From a virus (Duplodnaviria > Caudoviricetes): DNA of 34,478 nt. Both the position numbers and the translations under genes were made by a program. Below are positions 6,782 through 26,854 of this stretch, one piece after another. Location of the stretch: positions 1-34,478 of the IMG/VR virus record IMGVR_UViG_3300035102_000153, one strand, 5' to 3'. Within the stretch, counting starts at the first letter, position 1; every line of letters begins with the position of its first letter. The notes under the pieces are model-generated. The model saw nothing but the letters and a program-made list of their open reading frames with translations, was not told the DNA's origin and did not search any database.

Positions 6782-6810
6782 ATAAAAAATTCAATTAAGG
6801 GGGTATTAGA

Positions 6811-7493: not shown

Positions 7494-7516
7494 AAAGAAC
7501 AAAAGGGGTGAAGTGA

Positions 7517-8047: not shown

Positions 8048-8067
8048 AAATTAAAGGGGGAAATAAA

Positions 8068-8307
8068 ATGAATGATGGTAGAAGCCAAGTAAGTGAAGAA
8101 ATAAGAATGTTAGACATGTTGTTGGAACTTATAGACACTAAGCTAAAAAGTTTATTTGCTGAACGGGAACTAATGCAAAGGTTTTATTATTCAAAAGAAA
8201 TGGACTACGAAATGACTAAGGAAATTCTTGAATACCAACGACTGTACAACTACGTTGAAGAATGGAAGGCTGCTATAATGGCTATAGCAAGTGAAAGTGA
8301 CAAATGA
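8068..8307 (+). CDS. Hypothetical helical protein (79 aa)
   Basis: GGGGG RBS; translationally coupled to the next gene. Confidence 0.7.
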   Translation: MNDGRSQVSEEIRMLDMLLELIDTKLKSLFAERELMQRFYYSKEMDYEMTKEILEYQRLYNYVEEWKAAIMAIASESDK

Positions 8308-8642
8308 AAAGCTACAATAAGTACAACAACAGAAAAGTAGAATATGATGGCTATAAGTTTGATAGCAAAAAAGAAGCTGACTTTTATAAGAAGTTGAAAG
8401 CGTTACAAAAGGCAGGTAAAATAAAAAAAATAGAAGTGCATCCGAAGTTTGAATTGCAACCAAGTTTTAAAAAGAATGGAAAGACATATAGGGCAATAAA
8501 TTATTATGGTGACTTTCTTGTAACTTATAACGATGGCAGTATAAGACTATATGACACAAAAGGTAAAAGAACAGAAGTATACAAAATTAAAAAGAAGCTG
8601 TTTGAATACAAATATAAAGATCTAACAATAGAAGAGGTTTAA
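8304..8642 (+). CDS. DUF1064-like PD-(D/E)XK nuclease-family protein
   Basis: NKYNNRKVEYDGYKFDSKKEA...HPKFELQP...YYGDF...DTKG..TEVYKIKKKLF. Confidence 0.85.
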   Translation: MKSYNKYNNRKVEYDGYKFDSKKEADFYKKLKALQKAGKIKKIEVHPKFELQPSFKKNGKTYRAINYYGDFLVTYNDGSIRLYDTKGKRTEVYKIKKKLFEYKYKDLTIEEV

Positions 8643-8660
8643 CAGCCTCTTCTATTTTTT
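8627..8660 (+). terminator. Rho-independent terminator
   Basis: AATAGAAGAGG / CCTCTTCTATT stem followed by a T run. Confidence 0.8.
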
Positions 8661-8662
8661 AT

Positions 8663-8692
8663 TTGCTTTTTATTGTATATATGTGGTATAAT
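8663..8692 (+). promoter_or_regulatory. Putative promoter of the packaging/structural operon
   Basis: TTGCTT-18 bp-TATAAT with an extended TGn motif, upstream of terS. Confidence 0.6.
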
Positions 8693-8797
8693 TGTATATG
8701 AAATATGCAATTGTATAATTTGCATAATTTTGCATCAGAACTTTTCTAACGTTTAGCAACAAAAATATAATGTATTTGTAAACAAGGGGGTATAAAT

Positions 8798-9199
8798 ATG
8801 GCAAGACCAAAATTAAATAAAGAAAAGCATGATCTTGCCGTCAAGCTTGTTGAACAAGGAATAAAAAAAGAATATATATATGGTGCTTTAGGAATTACGA
8901 AAACAACGTATTGGGAATGGCTGAAAAAAGGTAAACAGGCTAAAAGTGGAAAATATAAAGAATTCTATGACGACATAAACAAAGCTGAAAGCAGGGCTAT
9001 ACAGAAGCTTCAAAGGGGTATGTTGGAAACTGGAAAAGATGACTGGCATATGTACAAAGAAGCTTTAGCAATGTTCTGGCGTGATGAATTTGGTGAAAAG
9101 AAGTCCATTGAAGTCGAAGGTGAAAACGGTATAAAAATAGTGATTGAGGAAGTCGATGCAAGTGTCAGAAGCGACCGAACTGAAGGTACAAGCGAATAA
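8798..9199 (+). CDS. terS: Terminase small subunit (putative)
   Basis: MARPKL start, HTH-like segment, position immediately before and overlapping terL. Confidence 0.75.
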   Translation: MARPKLNKEKHDLAVKLVEQGIKKEYIYGALGITKTTYWEWLKKGKQAKSGKYKEFYDDINKAESRAIQKLQRGMLETGKDDWHMYKEALAMFWRDEFGEKKSIEVEGENGIKIVIEEVDASVRSDRTEGTSE

Positions 9200-10349
9200 A
9201 AAAATATATGAATTTCTAAAAAGCACAAATTATAAGATCTACGTAATATATGGTGGTGCTGGCAGTGGGAAGTCGTACACGGTTACACAATTTCTTATTG
9301 CCAGAAGATTATTAAGGTACAAAAACAAACGTCTTTTGGTTACTAGAAAATATAATCCGTCTTTGAAACAAACGGCATATAGCTTGATGTTAGAATGGCT
9401 TCAAAAATTCAAAGTTAAATATGAAGAAAAGAAATCAGAACAACTTATAAATTTACCAAATGGTAGTGAAATTCTTTTTCGTGGAATGGACGACGCTGAA
9501 AAAATTAAGTCAAGTGAATTCAACTATATTTGGATGGAAGAAGCTACAGAATTTACTATGCAGGACTTTTTGCAATTAAGACTACGACTTAGACGTGCTA
9601 ATGCTGGGCAACGTAACCAAATGTTTTTGACGTTCAACCCAGTGTCTTCTTGGGTGACCGACTATTTCTTGAAGCAAGAACAGGAAGACGTTGGAATTCT
9701 ACAGACTACCTACAAAGACAACATACGTTTTCTTGATGATGACTACGTCAAAGCTTTGGAAGGCTTAGCGAACCAAGATCTTAGTTTCTACCAAATTTAT
9801 GCACTTGGACAAGTTGCAGAATTAAAAAATAAAGTGTATAATAATTATGTAGTTGTAAAAGATCTGCCTTCAAGCTATGATGAAATTATTTATGGTGTTG
9901 ACTTTGGTTATAATAATCCGTCAGTTATTTTGGAAATTGGAATAAAAGATGGTAATATATATATAATAAAAGAATTGTACAAAACACATTTGACAAATTC
10001 AGAACTTATAGAAGAAATGAAAACATTTGTACATGCAAATTCAGATGTATATGCAGACAGTGCTGAACCACAGCGTATTAAAGAAATAGAAGAAGCAGGG
10101 TTCAATATATATGCGGCTAAAAAAGAAGTAAAGAATGGAATTGACTTTTTGAAGCGAAAGAAAATATACATTCACGAAAATTGTACAAATACCATAGAAG
10201 AAATAAAAAACTACAAATACAAAGAAGACAGACAAGGGAACGTACTTGAAGAACCGGTAAAATTCAAAGACCACGCTATGGATGCAATGCGTTATGCTGT
10301 ATATACACATGAAACGAAATATGGTGAACCAACGATCAGGTTTATATAG
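9156..10349 (+). CDS. terL: Terminase large subunit, PBSX family
   Basis: GGAGSGKS Walker A, WMEEATE Walker B, TFNP, GVDFGY and DHAMDAMRYA nuclease motifs; GAGGA RBS before ATG 9156. Confidence 0.95.
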   Translation: MQVSEATELKVQANKKIYEFLKSTNYKIYVIYGGAGSGKSYTVTQFLIARRLLRYKNKRLLVTRKYNPSLKQTAYSLMLEWLQKFKVKYEEKKSEQLINLPNGSEILFRGMDDAEKIKSSEFNYIWMEEATEFTMQDFLQLRLRLRRANAGQRNQMFLTFNPVSSWVTDYFLKQEQEDVGILQTTYKDNIRFLDDDYVKALEGLANQDLSFYQIYALGQVAELKNKVYNNYVVVKDLPSSYDEIIYGVDFGYNNPSVILEIGIKDGNIYIIKELYKTHLTNSELIEEMKTFVHANSDVYADSAEPQRIKEIEEAGFNIYAAKKEVKNGIDFLKRKKIYIHENCTNTIEEIKNYKYKEDRQGNVLEEPVKFKDHAMDAMRYAVYTHETKYGEPTIRFI

Positions 10350-10360
10350 GGGGCAGTAGA

Positions 10361-12343
10361 ATGCTGAATATATTTCAGAAATTTTTACAAAGAATAAACC
10401 CTTTCAAACAATACAAAACACCACCGCCTGAATGGTCATGGCAAACGAATTATATGACCGAAGCACCTGCAATGACTACACAAGAACATTTGAACGTGTA
10501 CGGTAAAGTTTCAACCGTGTATTCGTGCGTGCGAATTATTGCACAGACGATCGCAGCAGTAAATTGGAAAATAAAAAAGAATGATCAAGAAATAAAAGAT
10601 CACCTTGCTTTAGAACTTTTCAAAAATCCTGTACCATTCTTAACCAGATGGGAACTATTCTACCTTACCGCACAACACTTGGAACTTACCGGTGAAGCTA
10701 TGTGGTTACTTCTTAAGAATAAGCAAAATAAGATCTTAGGTCTACTTCCGATCAACCCTACTATGTTACAATTAAACATAAACGAAATGAATATGCCTGA
10801 AGCATGGGAATTTCACGGCACACATGGGCGTGTTACTATTGACTTGGAAGACATTCTATTTTTCAAGTACCCGAACCCTGTGAATATATACAGGGGTATG
10901 TCGCCGTTGCAGGCTGCAGCTATGGAAGTAGATGCTACCTACTACGCAAGTCAGTGGAATAAGAACTTTTTCTATAATTCAGCTATGCCGTCGGCAGGGT
11001 TTACTTTTCAAGAAAAGCTTAGCGATCAAGCTTATTTGCGTTTGAAAAAACAAATAACTGAAAATTTTCAAGGCGTGAAGAACGCACACAAATTCATTAT
11101 TCTTGAAGGTGGTGCAGACGTAAAGAACTTGCAACTTTCACAGAAAGACATGGAATTTTTAGAATTGAAGAAATACAGTCGTGAAGAAATAGCATCGACG
11201 TTTGGTGTACCACTTACAAAATTAGGTTTGAACGAAAATTCAAATAAAGCAACGGCATACGTGAATGATCTAACGTTTGCAAAAAATACAATAACACCAC
11301 GTTTAAGAATGATCAAAGAAGTAATGAACAAATATTTTCTTAGTCAGTTTGAAGATGGACTAGAATTTGATTTTGAATCGGTTATACCTACTGATGAAGA
11401 ATTGGAAATTCAGAAAAATGTGCAGTATGTAAATGCTAATATTTTAACAGTGAACGAAGTTAGGGAAAAACTTGGCAAAAAACCAGTTAAATGGGGCGAT
11501 GCACCGCTACAGCCATTGTTGTTTAGTGCTGATGAACAAGGTAAACAAGTTATAACCAAGAAAGTCGATCACGAAGCATATTGGAAAGACTTGACGTCAA
11601 AGAAAAGTAAAGACGAAATATATTTTCAAGGTTGGGTTACCAACCGTTTCACAAAACAGGAAAGACAAACAATTGAAAATTTAAGAAACATAAAAAGCAT
11701 AAGCAAAGCTATTTCAAAGCAGGAAGCCGAAAAAATGGCTGATGAAATATTGAACTTCTTATTGTCAGATGAAGAACTAGAAGCATGGCAAGGCAAATAC
11801 GAAGACGTATTCACTAAGTTAAGTAAAGAAGAACTTGACGACTTTGTTAGCAGGTTTGGTATAGACGTAAATTTCACAGAAGCAGACGGGGCTGTGTTAT
11901 GGAAGCTAACCGAAAACAAACAACGTTTTGCAAAACAAATAAATACTACTACATATACACAATTAAAGAATAGTCTTATTGAAGGCTTTTTTAACGGCGA
12001 AGGCGAAAAAGAAATGGCTAAACGTGTAGAGGAAATAATGACCCTTTCAAAAAGACAACGATCAGCGACAATAGCCAGAACAGAAACCTTCGGTGTTGTG
12101 AACATGGTACACGATGAAGCGATGAAGCATGGAAACGTGCAGTACAAACAATGGTACACGGCACTTGACGAACGTGTTAGACCAGACCATATGGCAGCGC
12201 ATGGGCAAATTGTGAAGGTAACAGATGAATTTCGTGTTGGTGGTGATCTTTTGGAATACCCCGGCGATCCGAATGGTAGACCTGAAAACGTGATCAATTG
12301 TCGTTGTGTGTCGGTACCATACATAAGTGAGGTGAACGCATGA
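10361..12343 (+). CDS. HK97-family portal protein fused to a Mu gpF-like head morphogenesis domain
   Basis: Portal motifs VYSCVRIIA, GMSPL, EEIASTFGVP, LTVNEVREKLG; C-terminal IARTET, KQW...DERVRPDH, YPGDP...NCRC. Confidence 0.92.
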   Translation: MLNIFQKFLQRINPFKQYKTPPPEWSWQTNYMTEAPAMTTQEHLNVYGKVSTVYSCVRIIAQTIAAVNWKIKKNDQEIKDHLALELFKNPVPFLTRWELFYLTAQHLELTGEAMWLLLKNKQNKILGLLPINPTMLQLNINEMNMPEAWEFHGTHGRVTIDLEDILFFKYPNPVNIYRGMSPLQAAAMEVDATYYASQWNKNFFYNSAMPSAGFTFQEKLSDQAYLRLKKQITENFQGVKNAHKFIILEGGADVKNLQLSQKDMEFLELKKYSREEIASTFGVPLTKLGLNENSNKATAYVNDLTFAKNTITPRLRMIKEVMNKYFLSQFEDGLEFDFESVIPTDEELEIQKNVQYVNANILTVNEVREKLGKKPVKWGDAPLQPLLFSADEQGKQVITKKVDHEAYWKDLTSKKSKDEIYFQGWVTNRFTKQERQTIENLRNIKSISKAISKQEAEKMADEILNFLLSDEELEAWQGKYEDVFTKLSKEELDDFVSRFGIDVNFTEADGAVLWKLTENKQRFAKQINTTTYTQLKNSLIEGFFNGEGEKEMAKRVEEIMTLSKRQRSATIARTETFGVVNMVHDEAMKHGNVQYKQWYTALDERVRPDHMAAHGQIVKVTDEFRVGGDLLEYPGDPNGRPENVINCRCVSVPYISEVNA

Positions 12344-14457
12344 AAAACATAATTCAAAAACAGATTGTAGAACTAAAAGCAATAGACGAAGAAAAACGCA
12401 CCATAACAGCAGTTGCAAGCACAGAAACGCCTGACCGTTTTGGCGATGTAGTGAAGTCAAGTGGTTGGCAACTTGACAATTTCAAAAAGAACCCCACCAT
12501 CGTTTGGGGGCATGACTACAAGCAGCTTCCAATAGCCAAGGCAACGGACATCGCAGTACGGAATGATCAGCTAATATTTACCGCAGAATTCCCGGAAGAA
12601 GGGCTTAACCCCCAAGCAGACACTATTTTCAAGTATTTCAAAAACGGTTTTCTTAAGGCTTTCAGCGTAGGCTTTATACCACTGGAATTTGAACGCAATG
12701 AATATGGTGGAACTACATTCTTGAAACAGGAACTACTTGAAATTTCAGCCGTTGTAGTACCTGCCAACCAAGAAGCTTTAGCAATGGCAGTTAAAGCTGT
12801 TGTACCATACCAAGATCTACCACTTGCAGACATGGAACGTGAATGGGATGCAAACGCTGCTGTGAAGCGTGTACGTGACTGGGCTACAACGAATGATGAA
12901 GTAGACTTTGCAAAGTACAGAAGGGCGTTTTTGTGGTATGACAGTGAAAACCCGGAATTGTTGGGATCATACAAACTACCTATTGCCGACGTGATCGATG
13001 GAAGTCTGAAAGCTGTACCACGTGCAATATTTGCAGCTGCTGCAGCTATACAAGGTGCAAGGGGTGGTGTTGACATACCAGACGCAGACAAAGAAAAAAT
13101 AAGAAACGTGCTTTCAAAGTACTACAAAAAGATGGATCGTACACCACCATGGGAAGAAGAAGGCATAAACGAAAATACAACAAATAAAAAAGAAGGGGTG
13201 AATAATATGGAACAAGAAAACAAGAAAGAAACAGAACAACTGGACATAAAGCAAATAATTGAAGAAACATTGAAAGCATATGAACAAAAGAAAGAAGCTG
13301 AAAAGAAAGAAACAAAACAAGAAGAAAACAAAGAAGTTAAGAAAGAAGAAACTAAAGAAGAAAAAAAGGAAGATGAAAGTAAAGAAATGAAAGAAGAAAT
13401 AAAAGAATTTCAAAAAGCTTTTTACACAACGAATGTAAATGGCAAACCACAGAAAAGCGAACTTGATGAAAAAGCAAAGAAAGAAATAAATACATTCATA
13501 AGGGCTATTGTTAACAAAGACAATTCTGTTTTGAAAGATCTTACTGGCGGTGTCGATGCTTCAGGTGGTTACCTTGTACCTGAAACGTTGCAAAGACAAG
13601 TTCTTGACCTTGTTGTAGAAAAATACGGTGTTGTAAGACCAAGGGCATACGTTATACCAAATTTGGGGTCAAAGGTAACCAAATGGACAACGCTAACCGG
13701 AAAACCAAAGCTAACATGGATTGAAGAATACGTTGATGCTTCTAACGAAGCAGCTGCAAAAATACCAGCTGGTCAACCTGACTTTGGTAGACTTACATTA
13801 ACCGTGCATGACGCTGGTTTAATTGTACCTGTTACCAACGATGTATTGTACGACGCAAACATTGATCTTAGTGGACTTATTTCTGGACTTTTTGCTGAAG
13901 CACAAGCGTACGAAGAAGACTTTCAAGCTATACAGGGTACAGGTGCACCATTTACCGGTGTTTTCAACGATGCAAATGTAAACGTGAAAGCGTTAGACGT
14001 TGACAAGCTTGTACACGACATAACTGCTGATGACTTGATTGACTTGATGGCTATGGTACCCGCACGTTATGCGAATGGTGCTATATTCGTTGCAAGCAGA
14101 ACAGTTGCAGCCGTGCTAAAACAAATAAAAGATGCAAGCGGGCGTTATGTCTTTGATCCTGCACAAAACACAATATTTGGCGTACCAATTGTTGAAAGTG
14201 ACGTAATGCCTGATGTAACTGAAGTTGACACTGTTGACACTGATGCTGGCAAACCAATATTGCTTTTCGGAAACCTTGGCGAAATTATGATCGGTGACTA
14301 CCAAAGAATGTCTGTCGCACTTGCTGATCAAGCTTCAGTTGGTGGAAGAAGCTTATTTGAATTCAACGAAAGTGCCTTCAGGGTTATAATCAGACTTGCT
14401 ATGGCTATTAGACAACCAAAAGCCTTTGCAGTACTTAAAACTGGACCTGCTGTTTAG
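12340..14457 (+). CDS. Prohead protease - uncharacterised domain - scaffold - HK97 major capsid protein fusion
   Basis: Protease WGHD, FSVGF, LLEISAVVVPAN; E/K-rich linker; capsid motifs GGYLVPE and IFGVPIVES. Confidence 0.92.
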   Translation: MKNIIQKQIVELKAIDEEKRTITAVASTETPDRFGDVVKSSGWQLDNFKKNPTIVWGHDYKQLPIAKATDIAVRNDQLIFTAEFPEEGLNPQADTIFKYFKNGFLKAFSVGFIPLEFERNEYGGTTFLKQELLEISAVVVPANQEALAMAVKAVVPYQDLPLADMEREWDANAAVKRVRDWATTNDEVDFAKYRRAFLWYDSENPELLGSYKLPIADVIDGSLKAVPRAIFAAAAAIQGARGGVDIPDADKEKIRNVLSKYYKKMDRTPPWEEEGINENTTNKKEGVNNMEQENKKETEQLDIKQIIEETLKAYEQKKEAEKKETKQEENKEVKKEETKEEKKEDESKEMKEEIKEFQKAFYTTNVNGKPQKSELDEKAKKEINTFIRAIVNKDNSVLKDLTGGVDASGGYLVPETLQRQVLDLVVEKYGVVRPRAYVIPNLGSKVTKWTTLTGKPKLTWIEEYVDASNEAAAKIPAGQPDFGRLTLTVHDAGLIVPVTNDVLYDANIDLSGLISGLFAEAQAYEEDFQAIQGTGAPFTGVFNDANVNVKALDVDKLVHDITADDLIDLMAMVPARYANGAIFVASRTVAAVLKQIKDASGRYVFDPAQNTIFGVPIVESDVMPDVTEVDTVDTDAGKPILLFGNLGEIMIGDYQRMSVALADQASVGGRSLFEFNESAFRVIIRLAMAIRQPKAFAVLKTGPAV

Positions 14458-14479
14458 TTAAAATAACGGGGGTGTTACC

Positions 14480-14968
14480 ATGATCGTAACACTGGAAGAA
14501 GTTAAACAATTTCTAAAAATAACAGACACATCACAAGACGCATATTTGACAAAGCTTCAAGAAGGCGCTGAAGCATACATAAAAGAATATTGTGGAAGGC
14601 AATTTGAAAACGGGACACATGAAGCATTGATCTGGGTAGAAAATGAATTCGGTTTTCTACCCGATCCCCCCGTTACTGACGTCACGTCTGTTATAAACGA
14701 AAGTGGCGTTGAACTAACATCGTACACATTTACACCATACGGTACTATTAAAATTGATGGTGTTAACCACGAATTGCTAAGCGTGACTTATACAGGTGGA
14801 AGTGTACCAAGCGACATTAAGTTAGCTGTTTTAAGATTGATCGAATATTTATACCAGAAAGCTGAAGCAATACATAGTCAGAACTTTGAAGGTGTGAACG
14901 TAACGTTTTCGGAAATACCGAACTTTGTGCGTGAAATATTAGACAAGCACAAAGTTAAAAGGTTGTGA
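14480..14968 (+). CDS. Head-tail connector (gp6-like)
   Basis: IVTLEEVKQFLKI...AEAYIKEYCGRQF...YTGG..P.DIKLAVL. Confidence 0.85.
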   Translation: MIVTLEEVKQFLKITDTSQDAYLTKLQEGAEAYIKEYCGRQFENGTHEALIWVENEFGFLPDPPVTDVTSVINESGVELTSYTFTPYGTIKIDGVNHELLSVTYTGGSVPSDIKLAVLRLIEYLYQKAEAIHSQNFEGVNVTFSEIPNFVREILDKHKVKRL

Positions 14969-14972
14969 TGCT

Positions 14973-15308
14973 ATGTTTGACAACAAGGTCGTTCTTGAAT
15001 ACCAGTTTAGACTATTGCCAAAAACACAAATAACGGTGAAAGTACCAAACGGCTATACGTTTGATCCGGTGACACAAGTACAAGTACCAAACTATGTTGA
15101 AACGAATATAGAAGCTTATGTCGGTTGGTTTGACAGTCGGACTATAAACAATTTAAACAACAGGCTTAACGTTGACAGTCGTAAAGTGCTTTTAAAACCG
15201 TTACCGTTGTCATCGGATTCAATAATAGTCATTGATGGCAAAGAATATACAATAACGTACATGCAGGTATATGAAGAAGTCATTGTTTTAGGTGTGAATG
15301 AAAAGTGA
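14973..15308 (+). CDS. Head closure / stopper protein (putative)
   Basis: Synteny; IVIDGKEYTI motif. Confidence 0.6.
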   Translation: MFDNKVVLEYQFRLLPKTQITVKVPNGYTFDPVTQVQVPNYVETNIEAYVGWFDSRTINNLNNRLNVDSRKVLLKPLPLSSDSIIVIDGKEYTITYMQVYEEVIVLGVNEK

Positions 15309-15805
15309 AAGCTAACGACGTAGAAATACAACATAATGTAGATGAACTAAACAAAGCTTTAAAGCGTATAGCAAAGTTACACCCTAATTTAGCAAAAAGC
15401 ATAATAAACAGAATAGCTTGGGGTGTATACGGCGATCTTGTAGAAAAAACACCAATCGACACAGGCACGGCACGACATCACTGGAAAATACAGGCTTTAG
15501 CAGACGGGCTTACTTATGAAATTTCAAACAATGTTGGTTACATTCTTTACCTTGAATACGGTGTTAAAGGTCACCCACTTAGCACAGACTTAGAAAAGCG
15601 TATGAATTCGTTGAAATATATGTTTGCAACTGGTATTCTTGTAAGTGACGGCATGGGCGGTGTAATATATACATATACACCAAAAGAACAGCATCCGGGC
15701 TTTATTCGTGAAACACTGCGTGAATGGCAAACGAAAGGGTTAACAGTCATTAAGAATGAAATAACACAATTTCTTTTGAAGGAAACAAGGGGACTTAGAA
15801 AATGA
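15305..15805 (+). CDS. HK97 gp10-like neck / tail-completion protein
   Basis: TPIDTG..R..W, Y..YLEYG and PGF motifs; GTG start. Confidence 0.8.
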   Translation: MKANDVEIQHNVDELNKALKRIAKLHPNLAKSIINRIAWGVYGDLVEKTPIDTGTARHHWKIQALADGLTYEISNNVGYILYLEYGVKGHPLSTDLEKRMNSLKYMFATGILVSDGMGGVIYTYTPKEQHPGFIRETLREWQTKGLTVIKNEITQFLLKETRGLRK

Positions 15806-16209
15806 CAAAAAACCTGTATTTAAATATTCTATATTCAATACGTTATTTTCTACATGAAATACCTGACTTAAATGTACCGTGGTATTTTACACAAAACATA
15901 CCATTCACAGACGACAGCTTTATTGAAGCCGCCGGGGCAATGATGGACTTTTCACAAGAAATAAACGAATGGAATAGCTTTGCAAACATAAATGTATACA
16001 GCAAAACGCAAGCGAATGAAATAACGGCTGCTATTGTTGATGGGCTTAAAAACATGTATATAACCGTCTATGACTTTGTAAACAGCCAACCAACAGTAAT
16101 AATTGAACATATTGAAATAGAAAGAATTGTAACGACTGCACTTGGACAGTTAGACAGCGGGCATGCTGTTAACAATGTAACTATTTACTACAAGATAATA
16201 AAGAGGTGA
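15802..16209 (+). CDS. Tail terminator (putative)
   Basis: Synteny between the gp10-like gene and the tail tube; INVYSK pattern. Confidence 0.55.
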   Translation: MTKNLYLNILYSIRYFLHEIPDLNVPWYFTQNIPFTDDSFIEAAGAMMDFSQEINEWNSFANINVYSKTQANEITAAIVDGLKNMYITVYDFVNSQPTVIIEHIEIERIVTTALGQLDSGHAVNNVTIYYKIIKR

Positions 16210-16216
16210 ATTTAAA

Positions 16217-16780
16217 ATGGCAAAAGGTTACCCATTACGAAAAACATCAGTACAGTTTTATGATGGTACCACTGGTACCGACACGGCACCTTTACCAGCA
16301 CAAACCTTGGATATAGTTGGATACGCGTCAATACCTGAAATTGGAGACGTGAAGGCTAGAACAAATATAGAACCAAGGCTTGATCGTGGTATGATCAGCC
16401 ATATAGACTACGCTGATGACACGTTGGAACAACCAGAAGTTTCTATGACTGTGGACTTAGTAGACACGTATTTGTCAACATCAAACGACAAAATTTCAGA
16501 ATGGTTTGACGAACATTCACAAGATGGAACACCACTTGTTTCAACGAATGATGGCAACGCACAAGCAAGGGCAGACGATGGAACTTTGAAAAACATCGGC
16601 ATTCCAACAGACATTTTTACCTGTGGAATGAAGCTGACTTTTAACGACATAACAGGTGCTGGAACCATTACACGTGACTACAAATATGTACAACCTGTCA
16701 GCGTAACTATTTCATCAGAAACAACGGGAACGAAAATAAATTTCACCGTAAAGTTATTAGGTACTTATACGACTGCTTAA
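16217..16780 (+). CDS. Major tail tube protein (putative)
   Basis: Position, size and T/D/G-rich beta composition; GAGGTG RBS. Confidence 0.6.
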   Translation: MAKGYPLRKTSVQFYDGTTGTDTAPLPAQTLDIVGYASIPEIGDVKARTNIEPRLDRGMISHIDYADDTLEQPEVSMTVDLVDTYLSTSNDKISEWFDEHSQDGTPLVSTNDGNAQARADDGTLKNIGIPTDIFTCGMKLTFNDITGAGTITRDYKYVQPVSVTISSETTGTKINFTVKLLGTYTTA

Positions 16781-16794
16781 AAGGGGCTTTCTAA

Positions 16795-18516
16795 ATGAAA
16801 ACGATGAACAAACGCTTCATCGATCTTAAAGTCGAAGAAATGCAAAAAGTTAACAGCGGTATACTTGCTGGTTCATTCGATCTAAACCGCTATGGCAAGG
16901 GTGTAGACTATGGCAAGGCAGTTGTAGAAAGTTATACGGTTATAAACCAACTTGGTAGTTTTGGTGACTTTGAAAACGGAAGTGGTCTTGCAAATGGCTG
17001 GAATGAAGCTGATGCCGGGAACGATGCTACACCGACATTGACTACAGCATATAGGCAAAGTGGTTCGTATTCACAGAAATATGAAACCACAAGTGCGACA
17101 TTAAATGCTTCGTATTTGTATAGAAATATTCAGCTAAAGCAAGGCCACGTTTATTTTTTCAAAGGGTATATAAAAACAGCGACAAATAGCGACAACATAA
17201 ACAGCCTTGGCAAAGTAGAAATAGGCGACATAGTTATAAACGCTGCTGGCGTTCAAGACAAGTTTATAGCTACATCATTCACTTTCACGGGTGCAACTGG
17301 AAATTACCCGCTGCGTATTTGGTTGAAAGACGCTACCTGTGAAGCTACAAAAACTTATACATTCTGGGCAGACGCTTTCATGCTAGTAGACTTGACAAAC
17401 ATGGACGTTATGCCGACTGGTTTAAAAGCTTTCTTCAAACCATTAGAAAATTTCACTTTATTAGCTACGTCGGACCCTGTTTTAGCAAATGATGGCAGAA
17501 GCTTTACTGGCAATGAATGGCTAAACGAACTTATGCCATACATAAATAGTGTAAAAACAGTCAATAGTGTAACTACCGCAACGACCGTTATTGAACATGA
17601 AGGCACTTGGGGCAATAGGTTGGAATTCAATTCAGAACTAATTGGCTATTTTGGTGTGTATGACAGGCTAAGTGATGATGGTGAACTTACCAAACGATGG
17701 CAAAAAGAAACCGTAACAATAGCAGCTGGCAGCGGAACTGTTTCAAAAAGTGGGCAAACGAATTGTTTTCTAATTTCGGGTGACGGCTTGTACTATGATG
17801 CTACCATTGCTAATACCAGTATAACAACGACAGCACCCGACGGCAGTTATACGGCTTACTATACACTAACTAACTACGAAATAACAGACGTAGACATTGT
17901 TTCAATGTTGCCGGTTGTAAAAGAAAACCAGAACGTATTTGAAAACTGGCAGTGGATCAAGAACGAATTTATAGCTGATGGAATTGTTAAAACGTTTAAT
18001 TTAAGTCAAACAGCTTCGTTACCTTATTCAGTTTACGTAAACGGCGAAGAAGTAGCCGATCGTGAAGTTACAAAGTTTTCTACAAGTTTCACGTTTACAA
18101 CGGCACCACGAAACGGGGCTATTATACAAGTTTATTATAATAAAAGCTGGGTGCCTGTTTCTATTAGCATGGAACTATATGAACCAACGAAGTTTCAAGA
18201 AACATTGTCGCATTTCACAGAACTGGAAGTTTCAGAAAGAATGGACGTTGAAATGAACGATCTTGAATACGGCTTACAAGAAAAAATTATTTTAAGCAGG
18301 CGTTATGAAGTTTCACTAAACAAAGATCTTATTGAAAACTATGAAAATTTCTTAAAAAAATATAAAGACAAAAAATTCAGGTTAATAATAACAAACTTGC
18401 GTGATGGCAAGGTAGAAATAGCTTCAGTTTGTGAAATTGAAGAAGGAAGTAGCAAGAATTACTTCCGTGGAAACGAACGTGTGAATATATTAGCAACTAA
18501 CTATTATGTGGGGTGA
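16795..18516 (+). CDS. Large tail-associated protein with carbohydrate-binding-like and Ig-like segments
   Basis: NQLGSFGDFE..W...GSYSQK...GHVYFFKGYIK...FWADAFML resembles galactose-binding-like CBM folds; VYVNG...FTFTTAP..G..IQVYY module. Confidence 0.55.
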   Translation: MKTMNKRFIDLKVEEMQKVNSGILAGSFDLNRYGKGVDYGKAVVESYTVINQLGSFGDFENGSGLANGWNEADAGNDATPTLTTAYRQSGSYSQKYETTSATLNASYLYRNIQLKQGHVYFFKGYIKTATNSDNINSLGKVEIGDIVINAAGVQDKFIATSFTFTGATGNYPLRIWLKDATCEATKTYTFWADAFMLVDLTNMDVMPTGLKAFFKPLENFTLLATSDPVLANDGRSFTGNEWLNELMPYINSVKTVNSVTTATTVIEHEGTWGNRLEFNSELIGYFGVYDRLSDDGELTKRWQKETVTIAAGSGTVSKSGQTNCFLISGDGLYYDATIANTSITTTAPDGSYTAYYTLTNYEITDVDIVSMLPVVKENQNVFENWQWIKNEFIADGIVKTFNLSQTASLPYSVYVNGEEVADREVTKFSTSFTFTTAPRNGAIIQVYYNKSWVPVSISMELYEPTKFQETLSHFTELEVSERMDVEMNDLEYGLQEKIILSRRYEVSLNKDLIENYENFLKKYKDKKFRLIITNLRDGKVEIASVCEIEEGSSKNYFRGNERVNILATNYYVG

Positions 18517-18520
18517 AAAT

Positions 18521-19072
18521 ATGGCTAAAAGAATAAATATGAAAGAACTGCTTCATGACAAAGAAAAGGCAAAAGGCTTCTTTGCTTCAAAGGGTTATGC
18601 AAACGTGAAAAGAACATATATTGACGAAAATGGTGAACAACAAGAAGAAATAATTTCAATTGAAATAAAACCATTAGGTGACCATCCACTTAAAAAAGCT
18701 TTTCTTGAAAAGAACCCTATGCCGAAACCGCCTGTTATTAGGGAACTTATAAACATAAACACGGGTGAAACAGCCTACGAAGCAGGTGTTTCAGCGGAAA
18801 CAATAAAGAACGATCCAAACTGGCAATGGAAGCAAATACAAGATGAAACGGATGAAAAATACCAGAAAGAACTTCAAGAATGGCAAAGAAAATTTTTAGC
18901 AATACAAATGATGATCGTTTTTGAAGTAGAAGACGAATTCGGAATTGAAAAAATAGACGAATTTGAACAATTTCTTGAAGACTTGGGACTTTCAGCAAAC
19001 CAAGTGCAGAATATAGCAGAAGCGATTCGTGACCTAGATTTTTTAGAAAGCAACAAGAAGAACAGGAAGTAA
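18521..19072 (+). CDS. Tail assembly chaperone (gpG-like)
   Basis: Located before the tape measure gene; slippery T TTT TTA near its 3' end; GGGGTG RBS. Confidence 0.8.
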   Translation: MAKRINMKELLHDKEKAKGFFASKGYANVKRTYIDENGEQQEEIISIEIKPLGDHPLKKAFLEKNPMPKPPVIRELININTGETAYEAGVSAETIKNDPNWQWKQIQDETDEKYQKELQEWQRKFLAIQMMIVFEVEDEFGIEKIDEFEQFLEDLGLSANQVQNIAEAIRDLDFLESNKKNRK

Positions 19073-19287
19073 AGGACTTCTTTGAATATGAAAAATTTGA
19101 ACAAGACAACGAATACACACCCATGGGTTTCATTGTTATGCGAATTTGTGAAAACTTTGGGTATACGTACCAAGAATGGGAAGAACTTCCAAACGTAGAA
19201 AAGCTTAGACACTTATACTATGAAACTATGAAGGCACGCAAAGAACAGCATGAAATAGACAAAGCTAAAAAACAGTCAAGAAGGTGA
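19039..19287 (+). CDS. -1 frameshift extension of the tail chaperone (gpGT-like)
   Basis: Heptamer T TTT TTA at 19039-19045; the -1 frame is open (RKQQEEQEVKDFF...KKQSRR) to TGA 19287, just before the tape measure start. Confidence 0.85.
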   Translation, partial: FFRKQQEEQEVKDFFEYEKFEQDNEYTPMGFIVMRICENFGYTYQEWEELPNVEKLRHLYYETMKARKEQHEIDKAKKQSRR

Positions 19288-19291
19288 AAAC

Positions 19292-22200
19292 ATGGCTTTG
19301 TTAGGTGACCTGCAATTTAAAGTAGGGCTTCAAGACCAAAACTATACGCAAGGTATGTCAAGAATGCAGAAAAGCACGCAGACGTTTAACAGTGTTTTAG
19401 GTGGGCTTAAAACTACACTTCTTGGCATTTTTGGCACTGCAGGCGTTATGGCAATGGTGCGAAGTAGTACAAAGAACTGGGCTGAACAGGAAACGGCTTT
19501 AGTGAAACTTGACTTTGCTATAAACCAGTTTGCAGGTAGCAACCAAAAACTTAAAAAGGAAATAGTGGACCTTTCAACTGAAATGCAAAGTCTTATAGGT
19601 ATAGGCGATGAACAAGTTCAAAACTTAGCAATGCTTGGACTTTCGTATGGTATACAAGCTGACAAAATACTTGAAGCGACTGAAGCAAGTATTTACTTGT
19701 CAAAAGTAACTGGTACAGATGCGGACACCATTATGCGTGGCTTTGCACAAACGATGGAAGGCACGGTTGGAATATTAGGGCGTTATATTCCTGAAGTACG
19801 TAATTTGTCAGAAGAACAATTGAAGTCAGGTGAAGCAATAGACTTAATAAATGAAAAATTTGAAGGACTTGACAAAACGCTTTCACAGACAACAGAAAGT
19901 TCACTAGCACGTATGAAAGCGTCGATTGGTGACTTGGGCGAAATTATGGGTGAAAAGCTTGCACCTATTGTTAAACGTGTTTCAGACTTTGTTGTAGACT
20001 TCACGGTCGCAGCTGGTGAAAATGGTTCAGTATTGAAAACAGTTGCAGACTATGCAAAGACAGCATTTGACAACATGGGTATATTAGGTAAAGCCGTTAC
20101 AGGTGTTATAAGTGCCTTCTTGACGTTGAAATTCGCAGCTACAGCATGGCATTTACTTGCGGGTGCTTTGGTAAGTGGCGGTAAAATAATGGTAACTATT
20201 TTTCACACAATATTTTCGTGGCCAGCTGCAATAATAGCGTCGGTCTTTATGCTACAAGTAGCTTGGGAACATAACTGGTTTGGTATGCGTGACACGTTAG
20301 TCAGTGCTTGGGACGGCATGAAAGCAAGTTGGAACGGTGCGTATGACAACCTAAAAGAAATTTGGGAAGACCCAGACCTTTCATTCTTGGAACGTGTCGC
20401 TGGTAGTATTGGCCTAATTGTAGGGAAAATTTGGAAAGGTGGCGATGGTTACAGGGGTTTAGGTACAATTTGGTCAGAAGCTTGGAATGAATTGGTGAAA
20501 GTTTGGAAAGACCCAGATCTTTCGTTCATTGAACAAATTGGGAAAACATTTGGAACGGTTGCGAATGCCGTTTGGGAATCGGCTGTAACCATTGGTGCAG
20601 CTTTTACAGAAGCATTTGGGGGTGACGTTCAACAATATTTAGAAACGACTAGAAAGGCTTTAGAAGACATAAAAACAAGCTGGCAAACACTTATACAAGA
20701 AGGCGTTACACCACAACTACGAATAGAAGCAGGCTTTGAATTAGCTGAAGGAATATACGAATTACCTGCTAAATTGGTTCTTTCAGGTTTCATAGTGGAA
20801 GAAGACTTTGACATCACTGCATTAGACAATATTGTCAACATATTAACTGAAACATTAGGTTTGCGTTTAATAACAGGTTCATGGCGTATAGCTATAGGCG
20901 TGTCGCTTTTAACAGACGTTATTTTTGGTGACGGTATTTCAGCAGACAATTGGAAAAACTGGCTATATACGTTTTTAGCAAGTGCCGGGGCGGGTCTAAT
21001 ATTGACAAAAGGCAACCTACTTTCAATACCCATAGCACTAGCTATTACAGAATTCACAATTGCAGCCGCCATGGTAGAAGACATAAAAGAACAGGCATTG
21101 AACATTGAAAAGAATATGTTAATTGCACCCACAGCGGACACGTCAAACTTTGAAAAGGCGTTAAGGTGGGCATTAGGTGAAGAAGCTACTAACGCAGCAG
21201 CAGACGCAGCACAGCAAATATTGAAAATAGCAGAAGACAGTAGTACGAATATTTTTGAAGAAATTTCATTGCTTTTCTATTCAGTTACTTTGCAACTTGA
21301 ATACCATTTGAATTTGTGGGCTAAAGCAATTCAAGACTGGTGGAATAGTTTGTCTAGTAACGAATGGTGGGGTTTTCTTTTTGGCACAGGACCGTCTGAA
21401 GAAGCTATGACTGAACAAGCCGAAGAATACTTACAGCGGTCAGGTAGAATACCGGGCAAACAATCAGGTGGTTTTACAGCCAATGTAGGCGTTGACCAAG
21501 TTGCTGGCGTCGTGCACGGTGGTGAATGGGTTGCACCTGCGTGGATGGTAGACAGACTGCCGTGGCTTTTCAATTTACTTGAAGCACAAAGAAGGCAAGG
21601 TTTTAAAACTGGTGGCTTTGTTGGTTACCAAGCTGGTGGAAGTGTAGACGCTGCCGGTGGGTTAACACTTGCCGGGGCGTGGGAAGATGTGAAAGAAACG
21701 CTACAAAAAGATCTTGACTTCCTTGCAGATTTGGCTGAAAACATTATGGCTGAAGTTGGTGACAGGCTCGGTATAAATACAGATGAACTATTTAGTCAGC
21801 TAAGTGAATCTACAAACAGCGTTGAAGAACAATTCAATGAACTTGGTCAACAATTGAATGACACTGAAACAAAGCTTTACGACTGGCAAGAACTGCTTGT
21901 TGAAAATTCGGAATTGTTTGACGCTGTAGCAGACTATACAATAGGTATAAATGAAGAATTTAGCAATTTAGCAACCGTTGTAGACTGGCTTCAAAATACA
22001 TTCAGTGGGCTTTTAGAAAGAACAAGTGGTTTCACTTCAAGCATAACAACATTTTTACAGCCAGTTACAGGTTTTCTAAATAACTTCGTTTCAAGCGGTG
22101 TAACGCAAATTCTAGGGAACTTGGTTGTCAACCTTTCAAGTGTGAATGCTTTACTTAATCCATTCACAACTATTTTAGGCATGATGGTAACAATGCTTGG

Positions 22201-22702
22201 GCCTGCTATAGACACAGTTTTAAGACCGTTTCTTGACTTTATGATGATCATAGCCAGAACGATGGCAAGCGTATTAAACCCTGCTTTACAATTGCTATAC
22301 GCAGCTTTATACCCACTAATCTGGGTGGTAACTGCAGTAGGTTGGGCTATGGATCAGGCTGTACTAGCAATCGACAGTTTAATTGACAGTATACCATTCA
22401 TGTCAGGCTTCTTAAGTGAGGCACAAAGACGTGAAATGTCGCAAAGCATAGAACAACGTATGGCTGGCTACGAAGCTGGTGAAGAATGGACATTGGAAAC
22501 ACCAGAAGGTTACGAAGGTACTACTGGTGGAACTACATTTCAAGCTGGTTCAACGCAGGCGATCACAAATAATATAAATTTCTATTTCAGTGGAAATACA
22601 ATTCTAAGTGAAGATGATGAAGCAGCCAGACACTTAGCTGAAGTCATAGTAAACACCTTAAGGGAACATAGGTTGACAGTATTTGAACAGGTAAGGATGT
22701 GA
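19292..22702 (+). CDS. Tail tape measure protein
   Basis: 1136 aa, helical with periodic Trp; W.DPDLSF repeats; SGGFT...AGVVHGGEWV motif. Confidence 0.93.
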   Translation: MALLGDLQFKVGLQDQNYTQGMSRMQKSTQTFNSVLGGLKTTLLGIFGTAGVMAMVRSSTKNWAEQETALVKLDFAINQFAGSNQKLKKEIVDLSTEMQSLIGIGDEQVQNLAMLGLSYGIQADKILEATEASIYLSKVTGTDADTIMRGFAQTMEGTVGILGRYIPEVRNLSEEQLKSGEAIDLINEKFEGLDKTLSQTTESSLARMKASIGDLGEIMGEKLAPIVKRVSDFVVDFTVAAGENGSVLKTVADYAKTAFDNMGILGKAVTGVISAFLTLKFAATAWHLLAGALVSGGKIMVTIFHTIFSWPAAIIASVFMLQVAWEHNWFGMRDTLVSAWDGMKASWNGAYDNLKEIWEDPDLSFLERVAGSIGLIVGKIWKGGDGYRGLGTIWSEAWNELVKVWKDPDLSFIEQIGKTFGTVANAVWESAVTIGAAFTEAFGGDVQQYLETTRKALEDIKTSWQTLIQEGVTPQLRIEAGFELAEGIYELPAKLVLSGFIVEEDFDITALDNIVNILTETLGLRLITGSWRIAIGVSLLTDVIFGDGISADNWKNWLYTFLASAGAGLILTKGNLLSIPIALAITEFTIAAAMVEDIKEQALNIEKNMLIAPTADTSNFEKALRWALGEEATNAAADAAQQILKIAEDSSTNIFEEISLLFYSVTLQLEYHLNLWAKAIQDWWNSLSSNEWWGFLFGTGPSEEAMTEQAEEYLQRSGRIPGKQSGGFTANVGVDQVAGVVHGGEWVAPAWMVDRLPWLFNLLEAQRRQGFKTGGFVGYQAGGSVDAAGGLTLAGAWEDVKETLQKDLDFLADLAENIMAEVGDRLGINTDELFSQLSESTNSVEEQFNELGQQLNDTETKLYDWQELLVENSELFDAVADYTIGINEEFSNLATVVDWLQNTFSGLLERTSGFTSSITTFLQPVTGFLNNFVSSGVTQILGNLVVNLSSVNALLNPFTTILGMMVTMLGPAIDTVLRPFLDFMMIIARTMASVLNPALQLLYAALYPLIWVVTAVGWAMDQAVLAIDSLIDSIPFMSGFLSEAQRREMSQSIEQRMAGYEAGEEWTLETPEGYEGTTGGTTFQAGSTQAITNNINFYFSGNTILSEDDEAARHLAEVIVNTLREHRLTVFEQVRM

Positions 22703-22706
22703 TTGC

Positions 22707-23039
22707 GTGCTTATTCAATTTGGAAATGTAAAGCTACATGTGAAGGAAGTACCTGAAACAATAGAAATTAAGCAGAATTTGAACGAAGCTATAGACGGAA
22801 GTACATACGGCTATTACTTCGGGCAAGTAAGAACATGGAACGTTACAACGACGTTCTTTGATGAAGAAACGAAAAAGAAAATAGAAAAAAATATAAAAGA
22901 CAAACATAGGTTGTATTTAGACAACGGAAAATTTTACAACGTGCGTATAGATGGCGAAATAAATTATAATGTCTTTAAAACGGTGCAAGGTGAAAAGACG
23001 TATACAGCACAATTTACTTTGCGGGAAGTGGTTGTATGA
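22707..23039 (+). CDS. Distal tail protein (Dit-like, putative)
   Basis: Small beta-rich ORF directly after the tape measure gene, ending FTLREV. Confidence 0.6.
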   Translation: MLIQFGNVKLHVKEVPETIEIKQNLNEAIDGSTYGYYFGQVRTWNVTTTFFDEETKKKIEKNIKDKHRLYLDNGKFYNVRIDGEINYNVFKTVQGEKTYTAQFTLREVVV

Positions 23040-26000
23040 TCAGTGTTAAACTGAATAATCAAGAATATTCACAATATTTGTTGGACGTCAATATTGACAT
23101 AAACGAAAGTTGGTTGGGAAAACTTGATCCAAATACGGCTACAGTGAAATTAGACAATAGCAATGGACTTTTTTATATAAACCAGTACGGTCAAGTAGTT
23201 GGGCCTAACGATGTTATTTTTCAAGAAGGTATAACAGCTACAATAGACATAGACGGAATAAGAAAGTTCACTGGTTACGTTGACAAACAACCTAAGTTCA
23301 GTATTGACAAAAAGCAAATTTCTTTAAGTTTGAAAGACAAGTGGAAACAGTTTGAAAAAAAGCGTTGTGAAAACAAGGTATATTTAAGTACGGCTTTCTT
23401 GACTGTTTTAAACGACTTAGTTACACAAGCTGGGGAAATAATAGAAAATACCAACTTTGAAAACCCTGAATTGACAATAAATTATTGGTACGTGAATGAA
23501 GAAAAATCAATAACAGACGCCTTGACAGAATTGGTCAAGTCGGTTGGCGGACAGCTATATTACAACGAAAACGGTATTCTAATTTTCAAAGCTGGCTTTA
23601 AGTCTACGTTTACTACCGAAGTTGTAGACACGTTCACAGTTTCAAATATAAGTGGTGACTTTGAATTGTCACCAAACGGTGAAAAATACGAACAGGTGGA
23701 AGTTAGTAACAAAAGAAAAACGCTAAGTAACAAACTTGAATATGTTTACATAGGTGCTACTGAAGATCAACCATTTGAAGTACCACCAGAAGGGTTACCG
23801 CCGGATGCAAACGACAAATTCTTGGCTAAATTTGACGATCCAGTATGGTGGCTTGAATATTATGCGGGTGTAGAATTTGCCGCTGATGCTGGCATTAGTT
23901 TGAATGAAACAAAATATAACGACAATTTTCTTGACCATGCAAACCATATTTTGAAAAATCCGTTTGAATTAGACTTGCGGGTTGACAATACGTCAGGCAT
24001 AACTGGAAATATTACCGATTTCAAAATAAAAGGCAAAAAAGTTGTAGAAGAAGAAGACTATTACCTTTACCCTATTGTTTCAACGAATGAAAAATACACG
24101 TTTGACACAGAATTAATTTCAGACAGAACTTGGGGTGAAAGCCTTGCTAAATGGCTGTATGAAGAAGTACAAGTTAAACCAAAAGTTGAAATAAAAGTTG
24201 CCGATTTTGCAAGTGGTTTAAATTTGAACATAGGTGAAAAAATATTAGTAAAAGACACTGTTTCAGGTATTTCACACAGGTACGTTATTCACCGAATAAA
24301 GATAAATTACAAAAATTCAAGTGTAACTATTAACGCCGTTCAAGACCGTGACGCTTTTGTGTACGACCCTTCAATCGTAAAACAAAGCAAAAGCAGTGCT
24401 AATGCAGAATTACAACCACTTACACAAGACATTTCACAGCTGCAAAGTGACTTAGCTGCTACACAACAACAAGTTACCGAAGTGGACAATAGAACAAGCT
24501 ACTTGGACAGTACGGCACCGTCGACACCAACAAATATTACATTGTCTTCAAACATAGTTGAAGGGCAAAGTACAGTAACCGTTTCTTTTATAGCGTCACC
24601 TGAAGCAGACGTAATTTACTACGAAGTAGCTTATACCTTTGACGGCATACATTGGGAAACAGTGACTACGTCAGACGTTTCAATTACTTTTGAAGCAATA
24701 GCAAACAAAAACGTATGGGTGAAAGTTCGTTCAGTAGACGCTGAAGGGTATTTTTCAGCATGGTCAACAGTGCAAAGTGTACAAGCTGCTAAGGACTTAA
24801 TACCACCCTCGGTACCTGCTGGTCTAACAGTCACAGAATACTTTCAAAAAATACGTGTTTTATGGAATGAAAATACAGAAGAAGACATGAAAGACTATAT
24901 TGTACAAGTGTCTACTTATAGCGACTTTAGTACAAATGTAGAAACTTATTATGTTGACGCTACCTACTTTGTTTATAGTGGTCAAACAAGTACAACGTAC
25001 TATTTCAGGGTGAAAGCACGTGACACAAGCTTGAACGAAAGCGACTGGACGGCTACGGTCAGTGGTACAACAGTAAAGGCATACGATGAAGACATAGAAA
25101 GTGCTATATTAAACCAAGCAGCTGCAGACATAAATACGTTGAACACGGTTACAATACCTGCCTTGCAAACAGACATAGACGCAAAACTTCCTAATGAACC
25201 ACTAGTTATTTCAGAAACGCACATTCAAGACAATGCAATTTCTACAAGAACAATTCAAGCAGAAGCAATTACAGCCAACGAAATAGCAAGCGGAACAATT
25301 ACAGCAGGTAACATCGGTGCAAACCAAATAACGGCTAACCACATCGGTGCAAATGAAATAATTACGAATTCAGCAAATATAGGCACAGCGGTAATTGACA
25401 CGGTACATATAAAGACAGCAGCTATAAAAACAGCACAAATAGCAGACTTGAATGTTACAAATGCAAAAATAGCAGACTTAGCAGTTGACAACGCTAAAAT
25501 TGCAAACTTGGACGCTGCTAAAATAACGTCAGGGTACATTGACGCCGACAGAATAGCAGCAGGCACTATTACAGCTGAAAAGCTTTCAATACAACCACCA
25601 GATGCTTTGCCCAACGGTACTATAGCGTATTGGACAAACTCACTAACAGATGAAATTAACGGTATAGCTTTTGCGGGTATAGAAGAACAACATTTGAACA
25701 ACTGGGTAACACTTACGCCTGAAAACGCACCAGAAGGAAGCATAGTTGGTGAACTATTAGCAGCCGACAAAATTTATGCAAACCATATAGCAGCAGGAAC
25801 TATAACAGCCGACAAACTAACATCAAATTTTACAATAAGTGCTGGTCAATATATTCAAGCTGGCGACGCTAATAGAAATTACAAACTTGATGGAACTCAA
25901 GGACTTATTAGAACGATTGGAAGTAACACATATAATATTTTTAGTTATGTTCTGAGTGGGGAAGCTAACTTTGATGGAACCGTAACATATAAAGATATCG

Positions 26001-26536: not shown

Positions 26537-26547
26537 AGGGGGCAAAC

Positions 26548-26853: not shown

Positions 26854-26854
26854 A

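Follow-up and report, generated by a model that had tools for sequence, protein, structure and literature searches.

Loss of GAG/CTC and GATA/TATC words from the core genes of an integrase-less Petrotoga siphophage

Why would a phage lose nearly every copy of a three-letter word from both strands of its core genes? The question is raised by the IMG/VR virus record IMGVR_UViG_3300035102_000153 (Caudoviricetes), whose entire 34,478 nucleotides constitute the window analyzed here. An earlier note, made from the letters alone, had described positions 8798-25880 as nearly purged of GAG/CTC and GATA/TATC, and had attributed the loss to long-term selection against a host system recognizing a very short motif. 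The depletion was quantified, its cause was sought by comparison with related phages and their hosts, and the possible readers of the words were weighed.

Depletion of short words and its extent

In the core, both strands together held 9 GAG/CTC against 282 expected (Markov observed/expected ratio, O/E, 0.03), 4 GATA/TATC against 78 and 32 GATT/AATC against 89, with GATC and GATG close to their expected counts; about 97% of GAG is gone from both strands of the core genes. Per strand, density was 0.35 GAG and 0.18 CTC per kb, compared with 17.8 and 7.9 in G152, a genome of the unpurged sister lineage. The regions referred to below are the following.

8798-25880, no strand assigned: purged core, beginning with the terminase genes and taking in the first 950 codons of the tail hub (GAG+CTC 0.5/kb, GATA+TATC 0.2/kb)
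12340-14457, plus strand: prohead protease-major capsid fusion (zero GAG, CTC, GATA and TATC)
2099-4341, plus strand: replication initiator and DnaB helicase, largely purged (GAG+CTC 4.9/kb)
5927-8797, plus strand: block from ssb to the DUF1064 resolvase, purged (GAG+CTC 2.4/kb)
28469-34351, plus strand: lysis genes, early genes, RecT, YrlA-like RNA and TROVE, mostly purged (GAG+CTC 5.4/kb)
4364-5921, plus strand: IscB element with HEARO RNA, an unpurged internal control (38 GAG/CTC, 24 GATA/TATC)
25881-28457, plus strand: distal tail region of intermediate word content (GAG+CTC 8.1/kb)
443-850, plus strand: small early gene of unpurged content (GAG+CTC 20/kb)
1-127 and again 34352-34478, no strand assigned: terminal repeat of 127 bp

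The depletion was evaluated against a null of 200 synonymous codon shuffles of 14 core genes, in which protein and codon usage were kept fixed. Out-of-frame GAG was found 4 times vs 81 expected, out-of-frame CTC 4 vs 64, GATA 6 vs 69 and TATC 1 vs 44, while GATC was enriched (52 vs 26). The earlier note had called the effect independent of frame and strand and more than codon bias, and had allowed that it might vanish under a codon-aware model; out-of-frame and both-strand deficits persisted in the shuffles. All four GAGN contexts (equivalent to all four NCTC) had O/E values of 0.01-0.08; of the four NGAG contexts compared with the codon null, three lay at 0.01-0.04. Log penalties fitted with codon weights were -3.7 for GAG, -4.3 for GATA and -2.0 for GATT, corresponding to deficits per word of about 40-fold, 70-fold and 7-fold. 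Milder residual deficits were left after the fit for AGGA (0.42), TCGAA (0.13; 4 vs 30) and CCWGG (0 vs 10), and the palindromes CTAG, GCGC, GGCC and CGCG were also avoided. A longer gapped word was rejected, as no gapped three-letter pattern fell below an O/E of 0.6.

Several details that the note had read by eye were borne out by counting. In addition to lacking the four words, the capsid gene contained only three GATT and one AATC, with 10 GATC and 16 GATG; the tape measure gene was equally depleted (one GAG and one CTC); Glu was nearly always encoded by GAA (447 GAA to 4 GAG); and TTTC and TGTC were not depleted (zero-order O/E 1.94 and 1.29). The coding strand was also purged of CTC and TATC, and all named genes lie on one strand, which indicates an effect at the level of DNA rather than of mRNA or ribosomes. 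Shine-Dalgarno avoidance was rejected on the same coding-strand loss. Ribosome-binding sites held 3 of the 9 core GAGs (9146, 12329 and 16203). At the core gene starts between 8798 and 23036 these sites mostly read GGGG or GGTG, not GGAG, and many early genes keep AGGAGG.

The core purge therefore stood as described, but its limits did not: the purge reaches beyond 8798-25880 and covers most of the genome, including the replication, ssb-resolvase and lysis-early regions listed above (25.7 GAG+CTC/kb in an unpurged relative). The note had likewise set apart three regions of free word use. This held for iscB (24.4/kb), but the first 1.6 kb (8.8/kb) and the distal tail turned out to be intermediate. 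In the whole genome 137 GAG/CTC and 64 GATA/TATC were left, and 62 of these approximately 200 sites were located in the IscB element. This element was 87% identical to a copy in genome G084 and 81% to one in G083, was not present in the purged relative L006, and had the same word counts as the host copies, as expected from a recent arrival. In dnaB, seven of the eight GAG/CTC/GATA words fell in the last 145 codons, which are likely a recombined patch. In the contigs of four runs covering the core, coverage mostly ended at about 25966, so the distal tail region is likely a swapped module; gene 443-850, absent from L006, is likely a recent import. Imported genes arrive unpurged. Within 28469-34351, many of the leftover GAGs were found in ribosome-binding sites and structured RNA.

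The window is the whole record, and its terminal repeat indicates that the contig represents a circular genome of 34.35 kb. Sequencing runs containing the phage came mostly from oil-field and subsurface metagenomes, and the core was covered, with variants, in four runs from four studies. Among its 40 proteins, Pfam and PHROGs named a replication initiator, DnaB, IscB, SSB, a DUF1064 resolvase, terminase, portal-MuF, protease-capsid, tail, lysin, RecT and TROVE proteins, and no integrase or methyltransferase; no tyrosine integrase was found in five related records either, in a check of temperate versus virulent lifestyle. The window phage is an integrase-less siphophage.

Selection in phages sharing Petrotoga hosts

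Codon choice next to fixed neighbors revealed how the words had been removed. Before A or T, Asp had switched to GAC, as the earlier note had observed (7 GAT to 141 GAC in the window vs 199 to 70 in relatives), and before C, Tyr was TAT 0 times and TAC 18 times (30 to 1 in relatives). After ATG or TGG, Ser and Arg were encoded by AGN in 0 of 13 cases vs 14 of 20 in relatives, and Ile by ATC in 8 of 9 vs 2 of 19, the window phage choosing CGN, TCN and ATC after Met or Trp codons. Sites aligned with unpurged homologues had been lost via G>A, A>T, A>C and T>C changes and two-base codon switches. Such diverse silent changes are yielded by no single mutator and therefore point to selection. Context-dependent mutation, by deamination or a mutator, wearing the words away without selection would be in keeping with the prevalence of GAG to GAA, the most frequent single change, at 57 of 77 in-frame sites; however, many losses were GC-ward (GAT>GAC, TAT>TAC), transversions or two-base switches, the base changed depended on what was silent in each frame, and no erosion was detected in host DNA or in sister phages of the same cells. 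The codon-choice and aligned-site data largely refute this alternative, which is considered very improbable.

The window and L006 differed by 612 silent single-base codon differences over 3161 shared codons. A neutral one-branch drift simulation of this divergence predicted about 43 GAG/CTC and 17 GATA/TATC, while those seen were 5 and 3 in the window and 12 and 3 in L006. So few words despite 10% divergence indicate that selection is continuing. Word loss is thus a product of selection still in force. To this extent the earlier proposal is supported: a very short, non-palindromic word has long been selected against on both strands alike; that a host defence is the agent is what we infer.

Of the 62 loci with a related capsid or terminase, the purge was confined to L001, L002/L006 and one block of the mosaic L005. 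The purged and unpurged lineages swap blocks and have a common early-gene architecture: L005 combines a purged replication block with an unpurged structural module, and L006 has an unpurged ssb. Mosaics L003 and L005 keep the words with no incipient loss (190 vs 180 and 175 vs 174), and L036 showed a slight purge (135 vs 172, p 0.04). The head-tail module of the window occurs unpurged in G159, the closest unpurged phage with that module. A distant phage locus, L040 (45% terminase identity), had no AGAG/CTCT, and GAG at 0.6.

The host genus is Petrotoga: spacers of genomes G081-G083 and G086 match the window phage, and proteins of G083 and G084 fall in clusters whose named members are Petrotoga. 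Scanning for the type I-B repeat of clustered regularly interspaced short palindromic repeats (CRISPR) retrieved 82 metagenome loci, which together with four genome loci gave 83 arrays and 1518 unique spacers. By best match, 256 spacers were assigned to the purged lineage (92 exact), 174 to the unpurged sister lineage, 18 to both and 39 to other phages. Separate hosts for the two lineages were rejected, since spacers to both interleave in 34 arrays (13 arrays matched only the purged lineage and 8 only the unpurged one). In an array-heterogeneity test the arrays collapsed into one linked group. Of the spacers to the purged structural module, 131 of 136 lacked the four words, compared with 26% of 89 for the sister module; the 1001 unmatched spacers were host-like (34% word-free vs 33%). 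The window lineage is the only purged pool seen, and it shares its hosts with sister phages that have retained the words. Nor was the host DNA sampled depleted (GAG 1.04, GATA 0.97 in 69,007 bases of G082 and G083), so that the chromosomal bias contemplated in the earlier note did not appear.

The same arrays bear on another of its candidates, a requirement resembling a protospacer adjacent motif (PAM), according to which the words would be CRISPR PAMs removed under spacer pressure. This pressure is indeed heavy, as the 256 spacers matching the lineage attest, but the 5' flanks of protospacers with at most two mismatches read TTA (61), TTG (56), TCA (19) and CTA (12), the same for both lineages, and GAG, CTC and ATC were absent among the flanks listed. 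A second repeat type, present in one array, had no common flank, and no other Cas type with a CTC/ATC PAM was found, the conclusion being limited to the arrays examined. For the type I-B arrays among them the PAM explanation is refuted, and its overall probability is taken to be very low. TAA/TTA was mildly low in the core (0.84 after the fit), TTA being the main type I-B PAM; it was also low in the host sample (0.85), and the core value may not reflect PAM avoidance.

Candidate readers of the words

The explanation to which we give slightly better than even credence is that a strain-variable Petrotoga enzyme reads GAG and GATW at a small cost per site. With approximately 200 strong sites remaining, all-or-none restriction cannot be at work. 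A putative enzyme, present in some Petrotoga strains, would instead read GAG/GATW words on unmodified phage DNA, and any one copy would entail a slight risk of nicking, a lesion or a block. Survival would then drop with every extra site, which would make single removals selectable and the leftovers tolerable, and the per-word deficits, if at equilibrium, would mean weak selection per site. Such a cost would explain the gradual purge, its graded tiers, the survivors in ribosome-binding sites and the tolerated imports. The reader might resemble a partial, shape-reading self-marking system, such as bacteriophage exclusion (BREX) type 4 at NCTC, or a DNA effector switched on by infection, and might be absent from the six reference genomes or lie outside the families searched. 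More weakly, the sister lineage may counter the same enzyme through DNA glycosylation by ParB and a TAGT glycosyltransferase, in a 'modify or purge' alternative. The full version, in which an undescribed Petrotoga defence reads GAG/CTC with GATW words as near-cognates, one lineage glycosylating its DNA via an oxygen-independent ParB-TAGT pathway and the other, without the cassette, having rewritten about a thousand sites, is tentative and rather doubtful.

ParB and a PF20691 TAGT glycosyltransferase are encoded directly upstream of terS in the terminally repeated sisters G152 and G157, and the same pair precedes terS in G159, L009 and L013. The cassette is absent from the window and L006, and the window block 5927-8797 ends where unpurged relatives carry it ahead of terS. 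The pair was also found upstream of the terminase in Lactobacillus phage phi jlb1 and E. coli phage ON470590. The host of the sister phages is known as a strict anaerobe. A gene of the nucleotide-modification-associated family DUF1599 was weakly matched in L005, with homologues in the sister lineage. The TAGT glycosyltransferase had no sequence match in the PDB, and its AlphaFold model (predicted local distance difference test, pLDDT, 38) was not used. The two-gene form, with no dioxygenase seen, was observed at L238:16120-17728 (G152), L447, L453, L455 and L456, and occurs in Lactobacillus, E. coli and Salmonella phages.

A number of observations weigh against a host reader countered in these two ways. 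Only one purged pool was seen, a finding at odds with a general host barrier. The host-genus set consisted of six reference assemblies, all but one split into many contigs, and not of strains living with the phage; in these, within the named families covered, no candidate reader gene was found. DarT was missing from all six, as were a phosphorothioate-type 3'-phosphoadenosine-5'-phosphosulfate (PAPS) reductase (PF01507, E 1e-7), the synthase family of the BREX-4, Ssp and Dnd systems (BrxP, SspD, DndC, TdpC), and a second tRNA-guanine transglycosylase (TGT), and PglZ, GmrSD/SspE-type DUF262 and Card1/Can2 were found in 0 of 5. Cap4, which may favour a 3-bp word, and DUF6602 gave 0 of 26 in the host-family genomes, where the controls were silent, so that this is no evidence of absence. 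On the side of the cassette, no dioxygenase or methyltransferase making the usual TAGT substrate was detected among the sister open reading frames (ORFs) scanned, and mosaics L003 and L005, without the cassette there, retain the words as described. TAGT is also missing from several unpurged loci that are more distant and of unknown host. Moreover, 1 of 110 spacers on G152 fell in the cassette (about 5 expected by length), so many sister phages may lack it, and G159 had no spacer match at up to four mismatches, hence its host is probably different.

Other results of the host search refine these absences. PF01507 at E 1e-7 matched 1 of 26 family genomes (G079, a 299-aa frame of CysD size), and weaker matches turned up in 4 of 5 genomes of the genus, of which the one inspected was LarE-like. 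PglZ was found in 3 of 26 family genomes; with none in the five host-genus genomes searched, BREX as named in the earlier note lost its footing. For DpdA of the Dpd 7-deazaguanine system, a second TGT paralogue, PF01702 gave one match per genus genome, a profile that may miss divergent DpdA. A Dam-like D12 methyltransferase was found in 0 of 5 and a C5 methyltransferase in 1 of 5 genus genomes, with no MnlI-like pair seen, and the Mrr-profile matches in 3 of 6 were ATPase proteins of 465-470 aa. An orphan BREX-1-type PglX without PglZ was detected at L184:8172-11582 and L180:9616-13074, with orthologues in L213-L232 (NF033452, 508 bits at a cut-off of 500; matches in 24 of 26 family genomes). 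Its specificity loops were identical in 13 loci, a short in-frame repeat being present several times, in varying copy number, in the host-genus PglX, and it is possibly a domesticated Dam/CcrM-like methylase. By phmmer alignment it has Lys at the Salmonella T802 position, and in the available part of PMC11341690, Lys802 in PglX goes with C at -1 of the methylated A. By this one-residue rule the predicted base before the adenine is C and not G, so the orphan PglX is probably not the reader. G083 carries at L185:10665-14987 an N4/N6 methyltransferase, HerA and a NurA-named gene; the methyltransferase and HerA cluster together, one member being a 991-aa fusion.

Ordinary restriction-modification systems were also considered, as a stack of Type III, IIS or IIG enzymes with 4-5 bp sites built on a GAG/GATW core and met in turn across strains. 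Systems of Type I, IIG and III and small Type II-like ones are indeed present in the host genomes and vary from one genome to the next, the supplements of PMC4752239 list GGAG as the 4-bp site of a Type III enzyme, and the phage avoids the additional words mentioned above (CCWGG, TCGAA, GCGC, GGCC, CGCG and CTAG). With the GAGN and NGAG contexts so uniformly low, however, at least four matched enzymes, long held, would be required, and sister phages would meet the same stack. According to the available text of PMC6286503, Type I and IIG sites are not avoided and Type III sites only rarely. Inverted-pair systems can be escaped on one strand, yet both strands are purged, which argues against them; Type III, another suggestion of the earlier note, accordingly fits poorly, as do MANTIS-like pairs. 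A stack is judged unlikely.

The single purged pool among elements of the same hosts and the failure to find a host gene would both be explained if the agent were phage-encoded, that is, if a nuclease or modifier of the purged lineage (or of its sister) hit the words in host or competitor DNA and its own DNA were spared. The only nucleases among the 40 window proteins are nonetheless IscB and DUF1064, with no methyltransferase or ADP-ribosyltransferase found (several small genes had no family). IscB is lacking in purged L006, DUF1064 relatives occur in unpurged L023, L027 and L028 and in L005, and 38 other TROVE-bearing phage loci are unpurged (GAG O/E 0.63-1.06). The unpurged head-tail module in G159 and the sites left in the phage's own genome, iscB included, also speak against it, and a low probability is assigned to this origin.

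A DarT-like ADP-ribosyltransferase, or another infection-triggered DNA toxin of known family, marking T in CTC/WATC at replication forks would need no self-marking by the host and would fit a graded short motif together with undepleted host DNA; DarT was present in 25 of 151 Thermotogota and 5 of 26 host-family genomes. On the other hand, ACTC, CCTC, GCTC and AATC are purged and TTTC/TGTC are not, while known DarT2 requires T at positions 1 and 3 (PMC12170906, available part). Each genus genome, moreover, had a single macrodomain frame of housekeeping size (183-207 aa) and no DarT. DarT2, which the earlier note had listed as a candidate, is on both counts a poor match, and a toxin of this kind is held to be distinctly improbable.

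Other features were observed that concern neither the words nor their reader. The capsid fusion includes, at 12790-13190, an unnamed domain between protease and capsid that elsewhere is fused to other head proteins and 2H phosphoesterases. No relatives were recovered by a tape-measure search, and the ESM Atlas gave nothing usable for 29838-30131 or for capsid residues 150-285. A YrlA-like Y RNA (32005-32118; Rfam E 2.6e-4, under the gathering score) lies directly upstream of the TROVE/Ro60 gene (32157-33458); the pair is present in L006 and was not seen in G152. In the sister lineage, a reverse transcriptase gene in the tail region (L244:6658-7686, L239:18701-19759, L452:540-1598) is probably a diversity-generating retroelement, and approximately 7.6 kb in or beside the record of G157 (L451:232-7615), with integrase-like, primase-like and small genes, looks satellite-like.

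Comparison with known systems

Site avoidance is known for palindromes of 4-6 bp; the removal of 97% of an asymmetric 3-mer implies that the word being read is shorter than an ordinary restriction site. Since there are cultured species of Petrotoga, the purged lineage heads the identified spacer targets and the unpurged sister lineage in the same arrays serves as a natural control, a direct hunt for the reader is feasible; it would also provide a first test of the widespread two-gene ParB-glycosyltransferase cassette. Within the literature searched, which excludes most subscription papers, no report of GAG/GATW avoidance, of a Petrotoga methylome or of the two-gene cassette was found, and the supplements of Blow 2016 contained no Petrotogaceae among the genera searched and no GAG, GATA or GATW motif.

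According to the available part of Rusinov et al. 2018 (PMC6286503), non-temperate dsDNA phages avoid mostly orthodox Type II sites, and coliphages with and without a base-modifying gene are contrasted. The window shares with this pattern a near-complete loss of words on both strands in an integrase-less phage; it differs in that the word is an asymmetric 3-mer with graded near-cognates GATA and GATT and no known enzyme. GAG, GATA and GATT are all asymmetric, unlike orthodox Type IIP sites, and the palindrome GATC is enriched. The MANTIS/Type III case (bioRxiv 10.64898/2026.09.23.753747, as far as available) also involves an asymmetric site, but of 6 bp and depleted on one strand in virulent phages, whereas here the words have 3-4 bp and are lost from both strands. 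DarTG2 of Thermus aquaticus (TCTC/TNTC; PMC12170906, available part) offers a short thymine-centred anti-phage motif without self-methylation, and TCTC and TATC are indeed purged; it departs from the present case in that T at position 1 is not needed, TTTC and TGTC occur in abundance and none of the six host genomes has the gene. As for the sister lineage, the ParB beside TAGT ahead of the terminase resembles the ParB + GT-A/TAGT hypermodification clusters, which, as described in the available parts of PMC13229309 and bioRxiv 2023.12.21.572611, include a dioxygenase or a thymidylate-synthase homolog. A hydroxylating partner was not seen in the sister ORFs scanned, and activity is putative.

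The closest likeness was found in BREX-4 of Bacteroides salyersiae, which partially modifies ACTC, CCTC and TCTC by phosphorothioation (PMC12914056, available part). Membership by gene content fails, as neither a BrxP-type PAPS reductase nor PglZ was found in the host-genus genomes, and a WATC target and avoidance of the motif by phages are not reported in the available part of that source. Its target, N(ps)CTC, is nevertheless in effect CTC/GAG, its modification is partial, graded and ascribed to DNA shape, and a short, graded, CTC-containing motif is what all four NCTC contexts of the window have in common with it. By this analogy, the reader of GAG and GATW in Petrotoga would work most like BREX-4 at NCTC.

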